Assembly: GCA_951406725.2 (NCBI GenBank)
Contig: OX597824.1
Location: forward strand, 77,872,001 to 77,936,000
Reading direction: 5' to 3'
DNA: 64,000 nucleotides
Source of the DNA: Octopus vulgaris
Lineage: Eukaryota
Shown here: in pieces, positions 7 to 61,035 of the stretch
Layout of the letters: each line of letters opens with the position of its first letter
How positions within the stretch are numbered: the first letter of the stretch is position 1
Notes under the pieces: generated by a model
Seen by the model: only the letters and a program-made list of their open reading frames with translations
Database searches by the model: none
Told to the model about the DNA's origin: nothing
Made by a program: the position numbers and the translations under genes

Positions 7-3000
7 ATGGATATAATATATGAAGAAAACAGACATGTAATACACCAATGCAATATCCATTTTAAGAGGAAGTTATCGTGGTTGAAACAGAAACGTCAAT
101 ATGAGCTCGCAAAGGAAGAAAAGCAGAAGTATCCAGATACAATAAATGGAATTATTATGGAAGATGTGCTACTACCAGAAGAGTTCAATAAAGACAATGA
201 AGCGAACATCTATGGGGGAGTAACAACGGACCCAGATGAAATATCGATACTTCAACTACCACCAAAGTATGCAGTGTATAGTAAAGTGAATACCATCAAA
301 TGCCTGTCCGAGATTGAAAAGTCGTTCACAAAAATACGTTGGAATTTAAATAGATACTATGACAACAACACTTGCGACAACAACAACAACGCGAAAAACA
401 CTAACCGCAGCAACAACAACACAAACAATAATGACCGCAACAATAACAACCGTAGCAACAAAAGCAACACGAACCCTAACAGCAGGCAACAACAACAACA
501 ACAACACGAACCCTAACAGCGACAACAACAATAACAATAGAAAAAATGTATGCATAGACACAAACAATAGATACAAAAACAAAAACACAAACAGAGAGAG
601 AAAAATCGTATACAACAGCAACAACAACAACAATTATAGGGAGAACCGACACACAAACACACACACAGATAGCCATAGTCACAAAAACACGAATAAAAGT
701 TGTGTCATAGGGGTCACGATGGAGAATAAAGTTGAATGCAACAGGATCCTTGGACAGGGAGTCAGCGGACTTGAAACAGATAACAATACTCATAGGAACA
801 AAAATAACGACCGCAACAGGGGGATTGACAGGGACCAACAGACAGACATAAAACCCAACACTAATATAAACAACACATATACCAGAAACAGGAACAATGA
901 ATATATCACTAGCGATGATAGTAATAATGGCAATGGTAGGAATAAAGGTAATAACAATAATAGTGGTAGTAGTAGTGGTGATGGTAACAGTAGAAGTAGT
1001 AATGAGGATAGTAGTGATAGTTGTGGTGGTAATAGGAATACTAGTAGTAGTAGTAGTAGTGGTAATGGTGATAATAATAATAGGAAGGCTGATGTTGGAA
1101 ACAGTAACGATAATGAAGATAACCCTAGAGAGACCATTGACATGTATACCCATCCCTTTGACACTCAATTCTTCAACGTATGCGACAAAACTTACTGCAT
1201 GAACCGAATTTATCCAACAACATTACCCTTCAACAAAAGGGTATACATCCCAAGACGTACTAATGACCACATGGAAGCACAGTTCACTATAGCTAGGACC
1301 AAACTTAGACAGATTTTAGGTTTATACATTAAGAGACAGAGACAGAATAAGACAGATGCCCAACAACTAGGGATTAAACCTGCATGTGGCCTACAGAAGC
1401 TCATTCAGCGCACGAGGAACGGAGAGGTGATATGCCTTCCCACGGATAAGTCCGGCAGGATGTCAATAGACAGCTTACCGAACTACATCCAGGCAATGCA
1501 ACCTCATATCGCCAATACAAAAGTAACAACTGTACAGGCGCATGAGGAGAGAGAAAAGGTCCTCAATGCCCACATGATGATGTGGACAATTGTTCTGGGA
1601 CCTCAGAAACGTACTGCAAAGAATTTCCAAGCCTGGAACAATGATATCCCGGCACTGTATGGACTTCGCAAGGACCATAAAGGTTTTACTGACCCTATAG
1701 CAGGACCACCAACAAGACCAGTCTGTGGAGCAAATATCGCTAGCAATTACAGAATCTCCTACTTCCTCTCAATGATCATACGCCCTATAATCAGGATGTC
1801 ACCTGATGTATGTGACAGCACAGAAGATCTCCTAAGCAGGATCAGTGACTGTAACAAAACTTGTGACTTGACAGGATGTATAGTAGGTAGCATGGATGTG
1901 GTATCCCTATACCCATCGATTGACGTAGATTTTGCAGTGGAGAAGTGCGTGGAGATGATCAACGAGAGCCAGGTGGAGTTCTGTAATGTCGACACAGAAG
2001 AACTGGGCCTCCTACTTAGACTGACATATAATAGTGAATACTTAGATAAACATAATCTTAGTAGTTTCTGCCCCAGTAGATGTTTAAGAGGTAGACCGCC
2101 TACAATTACTTCTATGGCTAGGAAGACACATATAGAAAGATGGCGCGGATGGACCAGAGCCATACGGAGCCCCGCAAATGTCCATCAGGTAAAGAAAATG
2201 ATCGCACATGCACTAGGAGCTAGTATAAGAGTTACCCTAAAAGGCCACACATTTAAATTTAATAATAAAATATATGCCCAGGACGAGGGGGCAGCCATCG
2301 GTGTTAGTATCGCTGGTGATGTGGCCAACCTCTTCATGGTATGGTGGGACAGAAGGCTTAAAGAATGCCTACTGCAGAAATCCATACTCGTAAACATGTA
2401 CTCTCGCTATGTTGATGATATCAATATAGTAGTAAAGGCACCCCCACAAGAAAGTACTGTTGATATAGTAATAGAAACTAATACTATGGAGAGCATCCAG
2501 CAAATAGCTAACTCCATCCACCAGAGTATTAAGGTCACAATAGACTACCCCACTAAACACCCCAACCATAGACTACCAGTACTAGACACTGAACTCTGGC
2601 TAGAAATTGTGAAAAATAAAACCCAAATCCTTCATTCATACTATGCAAAACCTATGGCCTCAAAATACCTGATCCACCGGAACTCAGCCATTGCGGGCAA
2701 TGCCAAATTCAATATTTTGATGGCAGACCTCGTCAGAATAATGAGAAATGTGTCACGCATGTGCGAGCCTACAGAATTAAAGAGACACATACAGTATTTC
2801 ATTCACCGCATGCAGTTCTCAGGTTACAGCCATAAAGAAAGGATCAGAGTATACAAAGGAGCCATGAAGAAATTTGATAATATATTATGTAATGATAGGA
2901 ATGGGATTTGCCCACTCTACAGGAACAAGTCATGGAACACTATAGAAAGGACAAAAAGAAAATAAGGAAGGCCAACTCTTGGTATGATAGCCATAAATAC

Positions 3001-3542
3001 CAGAGTGTCATGTTCGTTGACACCACCCCTGGAGGTGAACTAGCGTACCGCTTTAGAAGGACCCTAGATAAACTTAAACTAAGAATTAAGGTTGTTGAAA
3101 AGCCAGGCAACCCTATCAGATCTATAATTGGTAGAACCTATCCTTTTAGTAGAACTCTCTGTACGGATAACTATTGCACTGTATGTAGATTTAGCCCACA
3201 AACGAACTGTAAAGCCAGAAATGTGGTCTATAGTATAAGATGTATAGAGGGACGATGCAGTAACAAGACAGTAACATACGTAGGGAAACTGCAAGAAGCA
3301 TTGGTGAGCGGGTGAATGAACATTGGAGACAACTCAAGGAAGGTAAAAGCTCATCGATTCTGTACCAACACGCCGAACAAGAACACGGGGGATCAATCAA
3401 TAACATAGAGATTAAGATATTGTCCACACATAGAACAGATGCAACAATTAGACAAATTACAGAAGCTACACATATAATAGAAAATAAACCTAGCCTGAAT
3501 AGAAAACTAGAATGGAGCAATAGCGCACACCACAACATATGA
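7..3542 (+). mobile_element. Penelope-like retroelement, nearly intact RT + C-terminal GIY-YIG ORF broken by about 3 frameshifts (ORFs 7-516, 359-2965, 2908-3315, 3312-3542); 5' end runs off the window
   Basis: RT motifs LYGLRKDHK..PTRPV, GSMDVVSLYPSI, YAQDEGAAIG..ANLFM, YSRYVDD, LPVLD; Cys linker [21 protein letters not shown]; GIY-YIG YVG(ET)..ERVNEH..LYQH..RQITEA..LNRK. Breaks fall in the (AAC)n tract and short A/G runs. Confidence 0.93.
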
Positions 3543-3915
3543 CAATAGTGGATCCTGCAAACATAATAAATACACAGGTAATTAAAGAAATAGAAATGAA
3601 TATCTATATATATGTATATGTGTATATATATGTATATGTATATGTGTATATATGTGTGTATATATGTATATATATATATATATATATGTATATGTATATG
3701 TATGTATATATATATATATGTATATGTATATTCTTTTTTTTTTTTTTTTTTTTTCTCGATTAGATTTATTATTATTATTACTAATATTGTTGTTATACAT
3801 ACATACAAGCATATGTAATGATAATAATGGGTGGATGTAAACACATGAATAAAATTAGAACAAAAGCAACAACAACAAAAACAAAATACAAATTACAAGA
3901 ATGTATATAACCAGA

Positions 3916-3956
<41 letters not shown>

Positions 3957-3958
3957 TG

Positions 3959-4016
<58 letters not shown>

Positions 4017-4018
4017 TG

Positions 4019-4081
<63 letters not shown>

Positions 4082-4120
4082 CGATTTATATATATAAATA
4101 TATATATACATATATAGTTC

Positions 4121-4160
4121 GATTTGAAAACCCCACTAGGATGGGAGAAACCGCTAATAC
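4121..4160 (+). ncRNA. Degenerate hammerhead-like motif downstream of PLE-1 (U3-A8 type core)
   Basis: TTGAAAA (4124-4130), CCCA-ctagga-TGGG hairpin, GAAACCGCTA; stem I weak and stem III palindrome broken. Confidence 0.35.
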
Positions 4161-4235
4161 ATGATCTAAGTTATATGATGTATAAAAACATGTAATATAC
4201 AAATAAATATCTGTAAATATAAAACCATCCGAATT

Positions 4236-5455
4236 TCTGAGTCTCAAAGTCATGGTCGTCACGGAGGAATTGGGAAAGCTTGGTGTGTTTGGGGTGGGAA
4301 GAAGAGAAGTTTAGGTATGAGTGTGAGTCTGTGTGTTTGTAGTGAATGGAGGTGGTAAGAGTGGAGTGATGAATGCTGACCGAAATGTCGAGCAAGGAGA
4401 CAGAGGTGTTGGAGATAGTGGAGGTGAAGTGGAGGGCAGGATGGAAGTATTGAACGAAAGAGAGGAAGGAATCTAGATGTTCACGGGAGAGTGAGGTGGC
4501 ACCGATAATGTCGCCAATGTAACGACCGTATAGTTCGGGAGTGGGACCAGTGAAACTAGAGAATATTTGGGCCTCAACATAGCCAACGAACAGGTTCGCA
4601 TAGTTGGGGACCATTCGCGTTCCCATAGCCACTCCCGAGAATATTGGTAGAACTCGCCCGCGAACGAGAAGCAGTTAAGAGAAAGGACAAGTTCGGCCAG
4701 ACGAATGAATGTGGAGGTGGCGGGTTCGGGGTTGGGGCGGAGGTCGAGAAAGTGTTGAAGTGCCTGCAGTCCTTCGTAGTGAGGATGACGGTATAGAGGC
4801 TCTGGATGTCCATTGTAAAAGGGATTTTGGAGGAGCCGGGAGGAAAGAAGAAAGAGTTGAAAAGCCGCAGAGCATGGTTGGTGTCGTGGATGTGGGAGGG
4901 AAGAGACGCCACTAGGGGGGCAAGGACACGGTCGAGGTATTTTGAGATGAGCTCCGTGGGGCAGTTACAGGCGGAGACGATGGGGCGGCCAGGGTTGTAG
5001 GTTTTGTGGATTTTAGGGAGGAAGTAAATGATGGGGGTGCGGGGGGTTCGGACAATGAGGTTGGATGTGGTGTGGGGGAGACGGGAGGACGAGATGAGGT
5101 CGTAGACAGTAGAGGATACCGTCCGTTGGTAGCTAAGCGTGGGGTCAGAGGACAGAGGGAGTATAAGGAGGTGTCATTGAGTTGGCGGAGCGCCTCGGCC
5201 CTGTAGAGGTCCGCGCGTCACACCACCACAGCTCCACCCTTGTCAGCCGCCGTTGGAGGGACCGAAGAGCCGAGAGCTCAGCCGGGGAAATGTTGAGGCG
5301 GCGGTGGCGCCTGGAGAAGTTGAACCGCTGCAACGCACGCTGACAAGCACCCGCTGACAAGCACCCGCGAAAAGATCCACTGCTAGGAACTGGCCGGGGG
5401 CAGGAGACCACAGGGACGGTCGGCGGCCCAGGTCAGTGAAGCAGTCCTCATCGTC
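4236..5455 (-). mobile_element. Penelope-like (Neptune-type) RT fragment, frameshifted; same family as 35519-37307
   Basis: Minus-strand PGRPIVS, FTMDIQSLYT, AMGTRM.PNYANLF, YGRYIGDI, HYKHTDSHSYLNFSSSHP; overlapping part nearly identical to 35520-35730. Confidence 0.9.
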
Positions 5456-35410: not shown

Positions 35411-35518
35411 CAATTAATGCATGCAAGATTTTCCAGCTTTAGCATCAGGCATTCATGGTCCTCCTATGAACTCTTCAGCCCACCCTCGTGTGTGTCTATA
35501 TATATATATATATATATT

Positions 35519-37307
35519 ATCTCCAACACCTCTGTCTCCTTCCTCGACATTTCGGTTAGCATTCTTCACTCCACTCTTACCACCTCCATTCACTACAAAC
35601 ACACAGACTCACACTCATACCTCAACTTCTCTTCCTCTCCACCCAGAACGCACCAAGCTTTCCATCCCCTATTCCCAATTCCTCCGTCTACGTAGGCTCT
35701 GTAGTGACGACCATGACTTTGAGACTCAGTCTCAACGTATGGCTCACCACTTCACCCTACGTGGATACCCCCTCACCACTATCCACACCGCCCTTGCCAG
35801 AGCACGGTCCGTGGACCGTGTATCTGCTCTCTCTCCCCGAACCCGCCCTGTAGTCTCCCGCCTCCCTTTCCCCTCAGACCCTTCTCCAACGCACCATTCT
35901 TCGAGCTTTCCGTCATCTCCAGTCCGACCCGTCCACTTCACACCTCTTCCCTAACCGACCCCTCCCCTCTTTCAAACGAGCCCACAACCTTCGAGACCTT
36001 TTGGTCCATAGCTCCTTCCCTGACCCTACCTCCCAACCCGGCTCGTTCCCCTGCTCCCGCCCACGTTGCCGCACTTGCCCTTACCTCTCCAACACCACCC
36101 GCCTCACTAGCACCCACCATCGACCCTATCCCATCATCCACTCATTCACCTGCACCTCCAGCAATATTATCTATTGCGTCTCTTGCTCTCTCTGCAATTC
36201 CTTGTACATCGGACAAACGGGACGCCGCTTGGCTGACCGGTTCGCGGAACACCTTCGTGACATCCACCTTGCGAACGACACACCGGTCTCACGCCATTTC
36301 CGCTCCACCGGTCACTCCTTGCAACACCTATCTGTGTTCGGTTTGTCCTTACACAGAGGCCATCCGGAGTCCCGTTTGCGCCGTGAACAGGAATTAATCT
36401 TCTCTCTTCGCTCTTATACGCCATTTGGTCTCAACTCTCCCCCCTCCTCATCTAACCCCCCTGTCCCCCCTCCTCACCTATCCTTTCCCCCCGACCCCTA
36501 CTTCTTCAGTCCTTCATCCTTTCACCCCTACTCCCCTTCCCTTCTTCCCTCTTTCTCCCTCCTTCCCTCTTCCCTCTGCTCCCTCACTCCCCTTCTCTTT
36601 CCCCCTCCCCCTATTTCCTCCTTCCTCCCCCCCTCCTCCCCCCCTTCCTTCTCCCCTCCTCTCCTATTCCCCCCTCTCCTCCCCCTCTTCTTCCCCTCCC
36701 ATTCTCTCCCCCTCTTCTCCCCCTCCCCCTCTTCTCCTCACTACACCACACGACTTTACACATCACATCATATATGATGTGCCATACTAATACATACACC
36801 AACTAATACATACTAATACGTACTAATACATACTAATACATACTAATACATACACCAACCCTATACATACACACGTCCAGACTCCTCATACGCACTTATA
36901 CTCTCTCATACACACACACACACACTTATACATACTAATACGCACTAATACATACTAATACATACACCAACCCCATACATACGCCTGTCCAGACCTATCC
37001 TAGGGTCATTCAACCCTATTATCAACCCTATTATCTTCCCTTATTTCGCTCTCGCGTCTCATGTTTGATCTTTGACCTCTGGCCGAAATCAGATCGCCAT
37101 GTTGATTCGTTAGTTACTGCACGCATTTTTTTTCTCTCCTTCTTTCTGTGTTTTTTTTTCTCTCTGTGTATCTTTCTGTTGAAGAGCGTAGGCTCGAAAC
37201 GTTAAAGACTTGTTTTATTTATATTTCCTGAGCGCCATACTAATACAATTGTTTGTTTGTTTTCCCACCTGCCTTCGTCTTTTGTCTATTTTCATAAAGC
37301 TTCCCGT
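35519..37307 (+). mobile_element. Neptune-type PLE 3' half (RT end, Zn-linker, GIY-YIG, pyrimidine-rich 3' UTR, pseudo-LTR), bounded by (TA)n on both sides
   Basis: SIPYSQFLRLRRLCS..RGYP; PCSRPRCRTC..FTCTSSNIIYCVSCSLCNSLYIGQTGRRLADRFAEH..HF..EQELIFSL..GLN. Confidence 0.93.
37171..37208 (+). ncRNA. Minimal hammerhead ribozyme motif with atypical CUGUUGA core (predicted cleavage after 37203)
   Basis: Stem I TCTTT/AAAGA; CTGTTGA-A; stem II GAGC-gtag-GCTC; GAA-ACGT-T. Confidence 0.72.
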
Positions 37308-41150: not shown

Positions 41151-41175
41151 TATATATATATATATAAATTATATT

Positions 41176-41523
41176 GAGGTGGAAATAGCACAGAAGTAAA
41201 TATAAGACGTTTCACTTTAGAAAGAATTTAATAAAATGATTTAAAAATCATATAAAGAAAGTATAGAAAAAAATACCCGCTTCGATGATGAATCTTATCT
41301 TATCAAATATTAGTAAAAATTTATCTTCTGTCTGGGGGTCAAAAGTGTTTGACACCTACACAGAAGATAAACTGTTTTACTTCAAATTTTTATAAATTTT
41401 TACTAATATTCATCATCGAAACCGGTAAATTTCTATATTTTCTTTATATGATTTTTAAATCATTCTATTAAATTCTTTCTAATGTGAAATGTCTCCGGTT
41501 TACGTCAGTGCTATTTCCACCTC
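41176..41523. repeat. Diverged fold-back palindrome (about 348 bp, 4-nt loop) between (TA)n runs with a decayed hammerhead signature
   Basis: GAGGTGGAAATAGCAC..ATGATTTAAAAATCATATAAAGAAA vs TTTCTTTATATGATTTTTAAATCAT..GTGCTATTTCCACCTC; apex GTCAAA-agtg-TTTGAC; GAA-ACCGGT-A near 41418. Confidence 0.9.
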
Positions 41524-41597
41524 CGTCTTTTATATATGAAAATTTGATTTGCATCGATCTCTTCTAATACTTCTTCAACCCGTATATATGTATATGC

Positions 41598-41663
<66 letters not shown>

Positions 41664-41889
41664 CACACCACACACATACGTTTTTACCGTCAGAGAATTA
41701 TTTTTCAGAAGGTAACTGCAGCGAATATGTTTTTAAGATTTGGAATGTCACAAATTTTTACTTATGCGTAAACACTGTGGATACTGATGTAATTTATTCT
41801 GACTTGGCAGTCGAATGGCGCAACAAGATCGATGTGTTTTAGTTAATGCCACGGTTTTAATTAAGTCTGTAGAGTTGCCTGTCTACAGT

Positions 41890-41936
41890 GTTTCTCATTG
41901 ATAATGGCTAAAGAGCTAGAAACGCGTCTGGGAAAC
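41890..41936 (+). ncRNA. Minimal type I hammerhead ribozyme with U3-A8 covariant core (predicted cleavage after GUC at 41928)
   Basis: Stem I GTTTCTCA/TGGGAAAC; core TTGATAA; stem II TGGCT-aaag-AGCTA; GAA-ACGCGT-C; distal stem I extension GTTGCCT/AGGCAGC. Confidence 0.85.
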
Positions 41937-42089
41937 CTACAGGAGGCAGCACTAGAGAGAAATGGTATACTTTTTGTCATACGGTAACTGCAGGGAATTT
42001 ACCTTTAGAAATTAAAATATGTCACAAACACATTTTCACTACCCTCAAGTTGGCTTATCCCTAAACACTGCTCGGCACTAATACTGCTG

Positions 42090-42138
<49 letters not shown>

Positions 42139-42232
42139 TAGTAAAAAGGTAATAAAATAAATTATTATTACCGGTGATCTAGCACAAAAGACATCTTAGC
42201 AATTAGGCTATATGTTATTCATATATAAGTAC

Positions 42233-42469
<237 letters not shown>

Positions 42470-42676
42470 GTGAAATAGAAGGATGAATAATCTTGTAGTA
42501 GATTAATCAAAAGTTTAACCGATACCTTAGTAGCAAAAATCACAGCAGTAAAACAGCACGGTTGGAGGTACAACCATATGGTGTTGCAACCGTGCGTTGG
42601 TGCGGATAATTGAAATTAGAACATTATTGGTGAATTGAAGAAATGGAGCTGAACGCAGATTGAACAGAAATCGTTT

Positions 42677-42770
42677 TATTTCATTCTACACGTGTTTCGA
42701 AAGGCACAAATTACCAAAATCCGATGGAATAATGGGACCATATTGTGTCTTTCTCTTCAGGAAGAAAATA
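42677..42770 (-). ncRNA. Type I hammerhead ribozyme (left arm of palindrome)
   Basis: Reverse complement of the 42902-42995 motif. Confidence 0.85.
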
Positions 42771-42901
42771 GGAAATCCGTTGGAAAAACAAAAACAGAAC
42801 AGAGGCGGAGCAAAAACAAATCGAACTATGCTCCTAAGAGCCCATAGTTCGATTTGTTTTTGCTCCGCCTCTGTTCTGTTTTTGTTTTTCCAACGGATTT
42901 C

Positions 42902-42995
42902 TATTTTCTTCCTGAAGAGAAAGACACAATATGGTCCCATTATTCCATCGGATTTTGGTAATTTGTGCCTTTCGAAACACGTGTAGAATGAAATA
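42902..42995 (+). ncRNA. Type I hammerhead ribozyme with long stem II (predicted cleavage after GUA at 42985)
   Basis: Stem I TATTTTCTTC/GAATGAAATA; CTGAAGA 42912-42918; stem II GAAAGACACAA/TTGTGCCTTTC; GAA-ACACGTGT-A. Confidence 0.87.
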
Positions 42996-43050
42996 AAACG
43001 ATTTCTGTTCAATCTGCGTTCAGCTCCATTTCTTCAATTCACCAATAATG

Positions 43051-43088
<38 letters not shown>

Positions 43089-43414
43089 CTATATACGTGT
43101 GTGTGTCTATTTTTATATATGTATATATACATATGTTGAGGCGCTTGGCTTCGTGGTTAGGGTGTCAACATCATGATCGTAAGATTGTGGTTTCGATTCC
43201 TGGACCGGGTGACGCGTTGTGTTCTTGAGCAAAACACTTCATTTCACGTTGCTCCAGTCCACTCAGCTGGCAAAAATGAGTAACGCGGCGATGGACTGGC
43301 GTCACGTCCAGCTGGGAAACACATACATATGACATTGAAATCGGGAAACGGGGCTCATGAGTCTGGCTAGGCTTTAAAAGGGCGCATTTATTTTATTTAT
43401 ATATACATATACAA

Positions 43415-53481: not shown

Positions 53482-57006
<3,525 letters not shown>

Positions 57007-59747: not shown

Positions 59748-61035
59748 CGAGGGGCGTTCAATAAGTAATGCCTCTGACCCACTTCCCATAGCAGTAGAGC
59801 AACGAAACTTGGCACAGGTATTAGTCTTTTTCTACATAGGAACAACCCAGAGGTACGCATTTCTCCCATCGTTTGATGCAGTTCCGGAGACCGTTTTCGT
59901 AGAAGACCCCACTTGGTCCTCCAACCACGACGTGACTTCAGAAATCAAGGCTGCATCATCTGGGAAACGCTTTCCTTTCAAAAACAACTTCATGGCTGGG
60001 AAGAGGTGAAAATCAGAGGGTGCAAGGTCAGGTGAGTAGGGGGATGGGGGAAGAGTTCATAGCCGCACGCCTGTGCTTCTGATCTGGCGACACGCGAGTT
60101 GTGGACCTGAGCGTTGTCCTGCAGGAGGAGGATGCCTTTGCTGATCTTGCCCCGTCTCTTGGTTTCGATAGCTTCTCTTAATTTCCTCAAAAGTGAAACA
60201 TGATAGGCTCCTGTAATTGTGGTACCCTTTGCCAGGAAATCTGTCATCCCTACTCCGTCCTGGTCCCAGAATACTGTGAGCATGACCTTGCCAGCGGAGG
60301 GCTGCACCCTTGCCTTCTTTGGAGGAGGTGAGTCATGGTGCTTCCACTGCATTGACTGGGCTTTGGTCTCTGGATCATAGTGATGGACCCAGGTCTCATC
60401 CTGTGTAATAAGTCTTTTGAAAAATTTTGACTCATCTTCTTGGCACATCCCTAAATTCTTGCTTCTGGAATTCTTGCGTTCTTGCTTCTGGAAAAGTGTG
60501 AGCAACCTGGAAATCCATCTGGCAGACACCTTTTGCATATGCAAATGGTCATGAATGATAGTTTCCACAGACCCGGTACTAATCTTGACCTCATGGGCTA
60601 TTTGGCGAATAGTTATGCGTCGATCTTCCAAAATGGCAGCCTCAACTTGACGGACAGATGCCTCATCAATGGCAGAAGGGGCGACCAGATCTGGGAGCTG
60701 TTTCCACAAAGTTCCAACCATGTTTGAATTCACGATGCCAGCGTTTTACAAGGTCATATGATGGGGCATCATCACCATGAGTTACTTTCATTTCATTAAA
60801 AGTCTCCTGTGGTGTGCGTCATTTCAAATACGAAAACCGGATCACTGCTCGACACTCAACATGCTCCATTTCCCACTTCACTCATTTCAAACACCTGTAA
60901 ATCAGAAACCACAATTAATTCAGAGCTGTAATTTGCCACTTACTCTATAGAGATATAAATGTTTGCACATGCAACATTTCAGCTAGATCAAACAAAGGCA
61001 AGTGGGTCAGAGGCATTACTTATTGAACGCCCCTC

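Follow-up and report, generated by a model that had tools for sequence, protein, structure and literature searches.

In the window, the 64,000-nucleotide stretch of Octopus vulgaris DNA analysed here, we identified what is probably (probability of about 0.6) a decayed and probably inactive copy of a non-coding hammerhead repeat of ~337 nt, an animal non-LTR retrozyme that the enzyme of a Penelope-like element (PLE) likely inserted into microsatellites by copying an RNA, most likely a circle, with no break at the predicted cut site. The family to which the copy belongs is dispersed in the genome as head-to-tail monomers of 335-338 nt, which fall within the 150-450 bp class, are non-coding, carry one type I hammerhead each and share no upstream ORF.

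The hammerhead motif of the window lies on the forward strand at 41890-41936, with the core UUGAUAA and a GUC ending at 41928, as the sequence-only reading had described it. It was the single match of a relaxed hammerhead descriptor in the 64-kb window, and the descriptor gave a mean of 0.07 matches in 60 block shuffles (0 at the strict setting). The Rfam scan of the window recovered no hammerhead at the gathering or E-value threshold, and none among its 18 weak matches. The motif has the type I core (U4 G5 A6 N7, A9, G12 A13 A14, A15.1-U16.1, H17 and a 3-8 pair), the 3-8 pair being U-A, a variant already in print. Reading along the forward strand, it consists of the 5' strand of helix I (41890..41897, of which 41892-41897 correspond to the 6 bp of the family), the core U3-U4-G5-A6-U7-A8-A9 (41898..41904), helix II with its six-base loop (41905..41918), the stretch 41919..41928 with G12-A13-A14, the palindromic helix III ACGCGU (41922-41927) and C17, and the 3' strand of helix I (41929..41936). 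From hammerhead numbering, the cut is predicted between 41928 and 41929. Extended arms of helix I surround the motif (41864..41960, +) and exhibit compensatory changes between the subfamily consensuses.

In fold predictions, helices I and II of the window copy had pair probabilities of at least 0.90, whereas helix III had a pair probability of 0.0 in the monomer fold, so that the description of the motif as fully foldable holds for the first two helices only. Decay moreover accounts in part for the 8-bp length of helix I and for the first pair of helix II. The two outer pairs of helix I are specific to this copy, and the two changes close the internal loop of the family, with the predicted loss of a loop-loop contact; the 10.1-11.1 pair, usually G-C in type I hammerheads, is U-A, the U at 41905 having arisen by CpG decay from an ancestral C that faced A. 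The hammerhead had also been called minimal. In PMC4209133, this term designates motifs with a helix II of 7-8 bp, a helix I of 4-5 bp and a helix III that is absent or reduced to the core, and it does not suit this family, which exhibits the canonical animal type I with a 6-bp helix I bearing an internal loop, a 4-bp helix II with a six-base loop and a palindromic helix III.

The whole insertion spans 41678..42093 (+) and corresponds to 1.43 monomers of the subfamily that we named A1, with 86% identity to the subfamily consensus (14% divergence) and 68 nt deleted. A copy of roughly 1.3 units at 41683..42093 had been proposed; the copy does exceed one unit, with a start at ~41678 and a somewhat greater length. 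It is composed of an upstream partial monomer without hammerhead (41678..41790, +), 5'-truncated and covering monomer positions ~+47 to +190 after the cut site, and of a second, near-complete monomer with the sole hammerhead (41791..42093, +). The second monomer contains an AC-loop hairpin common to all subfamilies (42011..42039, +), located ~15 nt before the first of two fixed end sites and possibly a recognition element for the reverse transcriptase, and a "tail" (42055..42093, +) between the short (~+152) and long (~+187) end sites. The window copy terminates at the long site, next to a (TA)n tract (42092..42131, without strand) that was probably the target; another (TA)n, together with a CA-rich simple repeat, borders its 5' side (41583..41677, also without strand). 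The direct repeats and (TA)n end reported earlier are present, the repeats being spaced by 272 and 293 because 68 nt were deleted from this copy, and the proposed period of 270-300 nt must be replaced by that of the family monomer. With one hammerhead and one cleavage site, the window copy cannot release a circle, and the anticipated circle of 280-300 nt is thus discarded, the family monomer being in any case of ~337 nt. The circular fold of its own 272-nt unit reached z = -1.2 only; the consensus circular folds were strongly self-paired (z = -5.0 to -11.4). We consider that the window copy underwent ordinary decay and is probably inactive.

A DNA search of the octopus' own genome (2.8 Gb) returned 1114 candidates, of which 40 were scored and gave 59 matches. 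The 29-nt hairpin pattern had 88 exact matches and 868 with at most two mismatches (control, 0), and a binomial estimate gave ~2000 family copies (1000-5000 for plausible divergences). A pattern with an open core matched 230 times with at most one mismatch, 100 of these matches being listed. As for the conservation of the core, which the sequence-only reading had proposed to examine along with tandem copies, the U3-A8 pattern had 13 exact matches and the C3-G8 version none, and 21 of 178 arrays had two or more cut sites. Among 190 non-redundant segments, 153 covered the hammerhead, with U3-A8 in 95, U3.G8 in 37, C3-A8 in 9, C3-G8 in 7 and other combinations in 5. The alternative in which other copies would be canonical and the window copy would have suffered two decay mutations is therefore contradicted: U3-A8 is the family state, found in 90/108 copies of subfamily A. 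A canonical C3-G8 sister family, sought with two patterns, was not recovered, and the C3-G8 copies (7/153, 6 of them in subfamily B) correspond to the rate of ordinary T-to-C decay.

We could place 188 of 225 hammerhead-spanning copies in subfamilies (37 remained unplaced), namely A1 (64, the window type), A2 (34), A3 (10), B1 (37), B2 (6), C (33) and D (4), these counts mirroring the search patterns used and not abundance. The subfamilies differ in their 3-8 and 10.1-11.1 pairs. In subfamily A, the dinucleotide at position 10.1 was CG in 33, TG in 31 and CA in 23 of 103 copies, which indicates an ancestral C.A mismatch at the base of helix II. Subfamily B carries U3.G8 in 34/43 copies and an A.A mismatch at the base of helix II (43 pattern matches with at most one mismatch), and subfamily C combines U3-A8 with G10.1-C11.1 (211 pattern matches with at most three mismatches), U4C being present in 7/33 copies. 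The subfamily tree formed a chain C, A3, A1, A2, B, weakly supported and unrooted, and U3.G8 may be either an intermediate or a later relaxation. The family is old, with a median non-CpG divergence from the consensus of 0.11-0.15. On the side, we observed U4C on top of U3-A8 (core UCGACAA) in the subfamily C loci L293, L294, L295, L300 and L303, and such cores in about one fifth of the 100 subfamily C pattern matches listed. A second tandem U3-A8 hammerhead repeat (L305, G000:C15:57399438-57402472), of ~360 nt and better preserved, was not matched by the family profile.

The double change at positions 3 and 8 had been taken as an argument for selection on the pair. This can be retained for the source elements and not for the window copy, given its divergence, and the existence of a sister subfamily with U3.G8 shows that the family did not retain strict Watson-Crick pairing between positions 3 and 8 throughout. 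Nor is the core new, since U3-A8 already appears in PMC3088659 and PMC4209133. We set aside a comparison bearing on selection after insertion, in which invariant core letters differed in 26/412 cells versus 10.6% elsewhere, because it is confounded by base composition and subfamily mixing.

We then considered the pairing itself in 20 copies from four subfamilies, hand-picked by eye as well preserved. The 15 named pairs were paired in 90.9% of cases, with 29 cells showing two-sided change, which fell in helix I at the outer and third pairs and in helix II at two positions; 0/500 shuffles reached either value and slid controls gave 11-55%, a test that is inflated because the copies were chosen by eye and are related. 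Measures counting pairs or types were not above shuffles (249/500 and 255/500). Between the four subfamily consensuses, 73 pairs were invariant, 8 showed two-sided and 10 one-sided changes, and 12 were broken, the predicted fold being thus disrupted in 12/30 varying pairs. Helix III occurs in five distinct forms of 6, 8, 8, 9 and 10 nt, all self-complementary (an 8-nt CG-repeat form was reconstructed through CpG decay), as would be kept by a hammerhead acting as a dimer (PMC4209133). The maintenance of the core letters, helices and palindromic helix III through compensatory changes argues that catalysis, or at least the active fold, was under selection. A 2017 paper is said to describe PLE hammerhead variants cleaving as dimers. 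The C.A and A.A mismatches at 10.1-11.1 and the U3.G8 pair are expected to slow cleavage.

The ends of the insertions turned out to be informative. Our first set comprised 140 non-redundant loci, two duplicates and segments scoring <100 having been dropped. The 3' ends of 138 segments from its pattern-picked loci clustered at +144-156 (46 segments) and +183-195 (32 segments) after the cut site, with 5.4 expected per 13-nt window, and the same windows contained 2 and 3 5' ends, respectively. There are thus two fixed 3' end sites ~35 nt apart, the 5' ends being spread out. Inversions were head-to-head in 34 cases and tail-to-tail in 0, and those with both outer ends at a site always combined a short and a long end (14/14). 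Simple repeats followed 33/78 ends at the fixed sites versus 9/60 elsewhere. In a second set of 95 hairpin-picked loci, a few of them in common with the first, we recovered the same two peaks, with 23 head-to-head and 0 tail-to-tail inversions and the short and long combination in 14/17. In the hairpin-picked loci L180-L274, we also observed some excess of 5' ends between +31 and +50 after the cut site (19/107). This interval, at the foot of the long arm of helix I, may correspond to a pause of reverse transcription.

The combination of fixed 3' ends with random 5' ends, and the strictly head-to-head orientation of the inversions, point to reverse transcription. Partial tandems, an adjacent inverted 5'-truncated copy, a tail of 30-40 bp at one end and microsatellite targets characterize PLE insertions (Craig 2021, 10.1101/2021.04.23.441226; Frangieh 2024, PMC11167929), and the family exhibits the partial tandems, head-to-head inversions, tail of 30-40 nt and microsatellite targets, as well as two fixed 3' ends downstream of the hammerhead near an AC-rich hairpin. 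In vitro, a PLE starts reverse transcription at two internal sites, and their spacing equals the length of the tail (PMC11167929). In the anole PLE studied there, initiation takes place within the AC-rich stem-loop; in this family, the first end lies ~15 nt past the hairpin. Unlike PLEs, the family has no ORF. From the match to the PLE tail and the inversion pattern, it is likely that a PLE protein made these insertions, and the proposal of a small non-autonomous element mobilised by PLEs finds support in this insertion anatomy. In the literature covered, mostly outside subscription journals, we found neither a tail or inversion signature reported for a retrozyme nor a cephalopod retrozyme.

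The ends also bear on the RNA template. When aligned to subfamily references, 57/109 segments ran through the cut site and no 5'-end peak was present there. An apparent pile-up at the cut site with a single reference (9/107 within 0-3 nt) was an alignment artefact, the diverged helix III of subfamily C having failed to align, and it disappeared with the subfamily references. There is thus no fossil trace of a cut linear RNA, and the template was intact at this bond, either as a re-joined circle or as an uncut multimer. We favour the circle because similar elements produce circles, such as the mussel and axolotl retrozymes of 330-390 nt, which carry the same type of hammerhead (PMC7229834), and because source arrays with several hammerheads are few (131/178 arrays have one cut site). 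In four runs whose RNA status we guessed, 43-88 contigs of at least 80% likeness were found, none spanning the monomer. Copying by the PLE machinery from uncut linear multimers, with a slow or protein-dependent hammerhead and a minor role for circles, is the main competing explanation, which we regard as rather unlikely. It would account equally well for the copies running through the cut site, it has a precedent in the anole PLE, for which uncut RNA is the main template in vitro and cleavage is dispensable (PMC11167929), and core features that weaken the hammerhead are fixed in whole subfamilies. Against it, the core, the helices and the palindromic helix III were kept through many compensatory changes, and long multimers are scarce, yet 70/178 insertions exceed one monomer.

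Under the favoured reading of a retrozyme circle copied by a PLE, the transcript of a tandem array would fold two hammerheads together via the palindromic helix III and be cut to monomers, whose ends the long helix I would keep together for re-joining. As the insertion anatomy suggests, a PLE protein would nick the two strands of a target rich in AT or made of simple repeats, and reverse transcription would start at two fixed internal sites, ~+152 and ~+187, one for each strand. Such a two-site start would produce random 5' ends, copies longer than one unit, head-to-head inversions and a 35-nt tail at one end. The window copy would then have decayed by losing 68 nt, closing the helix I internal loop and being left with a single hammerhead, and in this state it would be unable to form a dimer in cis or to release a monomer. 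We tentatively propose a broader interpretation, possible at best, in which the family would be the fossil record both of a PLE protein copying a retrozyme circle from two fixed internal starts, one per target strand, and of a lineage of catalytically active cores, U3.G8/A.A, U3-A8/C.A and U3-A8/G-C (some with U4C), that always kept a palindromic helix III. If true, slow and dimer-gated cores were selected in vivo.

The family could also derive from truncated pseudo-LTRs of an old autonomous PLE, followed by local tandem duplication at the DNA level, an explanation close to the model discussed in 10.64898/2026.07.22.740005. PLE-type ends are indeed present, and hammerheads are known from PLE pseudo-LTRs, those of Schistosoma including U3-A8 versions (PMC4209133). 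The upstream flanks of 73 free 5' ends, in which only two pairs were shared, one of them through a segmental duplication, nevertheless argue that the copies are not the cut-off ends of an ORF-bearing element. The monomer also loops back on itself at the tandem junction, the hammerhead is canonical and not of the minimal PLE type, and PLE protein matches were few in the family loci, with no common adjoining of a family copy seen. This origin is thus largely refuted and we consider it improbable. A DNA-level repeat (satellite or Helitron-like non-autonomous element) whose hammerhead is a relic or a chance fold appears very improbable: satellites and Helitron-like elements can also show tandem units, hairpins and microsatellite flanks, but the descriptor shuffles (mean of 0.07 matches) exclude chance, the covariation, G-U included, fits RNA pairing, and the 3' ends are fixed, the 5' ends random and the inversions exclusively head-to-head.

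The retrozyme that we favour belongs to a known class, with an already published core swap, to which the family adds a series of core variants and clear PLE-type ends. Like the metazoan non-LTR retrozymes (350-390 bp in mussel, 330 and 350 bp in axolotl; Cervera and de la Pena 2020, PMC7229834), it is non-coding and of similar size, with one type I hammerhead per unit, a short palindromic helix III, a GC content <50% and a predicted circle with strong self-pairing; helix II of axolotl HHR_Amex2 has a mismatch (U.U) at its base, too. Unlike them, it mostly occurs as dispersed, 5'-truncated 0.3- to 1.7-mers with inversions (the longest array among the loci examined has ~3.6 monomers), its core is U3-A8 or U3.G8 with a C.A or A.A mismatch, its copies are 11-15% from the consensus, and it is known here from genomic DNA. 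The same 3-8 covariation exists in the U3-A8 hammerheads of Perreault 2011 (PMC3088659) and in the Schistosoma Cercyon PLE (~1300 matches, PMC4209133), the motifs of the latter being of the minimal PLE type with a long helix II and a short helix I. U3 together with G8 is mentioned as occurring naturally in a halophile variant that contains additional inserted bases (PMC7151607). PLE machinery and a PLE origin were also proposed for vertebrate non-LTR retrozymes (Li, Clavereau, Pollet 2026, 10.64898/2026.07.22.740005), from co-occurrence and pLTR phylogeny, the word "tail" being absent from that text; as it reserves the term "active" for two consecutive units with hammerheads, the window copy does not qualify. 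The movement of animal retrozymes having been argued so far from co-occurrence and phylogeny, the insertion ends name two exact predicted starts of reverse transcription and a rule, one short and one long end on opposite strands. The subfamilies also provide a natural series of core variants, all invisible to Rfam.

A sequence link between the family and an autonomous PLE was not found in a DNA-level comparison with one very young PLE family. The latter, represented in the window by a 5'-truncated copy (350-3918, +) with a frame break near 3285, has 76 scored matches, most of them 99-100% identical, and a full ORF of ~1312 aa with RT followed by a GIY-YIG-like region; we take it to be a member of the Neptune-like clade. 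We rejected it as the partner, as it had no profile match to the hammerhead family, and its tail region, with a different spacing of ~55 nt, aligned no better than shuffles (34/500 as high). A hammerhead-like motif, altered at position 9, lies in its pseudo-LTR, the end of which falls at either of two sites ~55 nt apart: among 20 loci (L160-L179), the element ended in (TA)n at ~+127 in 7 and at ~+180 in 8, 2 being slightly shorter and 3 unresolved. Remnants of another PLE type, with RT pieces and a weak GIY-YIG match, are present at 4171-5217 (-) and 35418-36777 (+).

Other repeats surround the element in the window. Three long inverted repeats, fold-back or MITE-like, are located at 42617-43055, 42216-42387 and 41162-41537, with arms of 177, 89 and 108 nt, respectively, that are 85-95% complementary. 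A SINE-like repeat at 43140-43390 presumably begins with a tRNA-like sequence. Farther away, we observed two tandem C-terminal fragments of a non-LTR retrotransposon ORF at 55218-56825, with what we take to be restriction-like endonuclease motifs, and an apparent mariner-type transposase remnant at 59990-60745.
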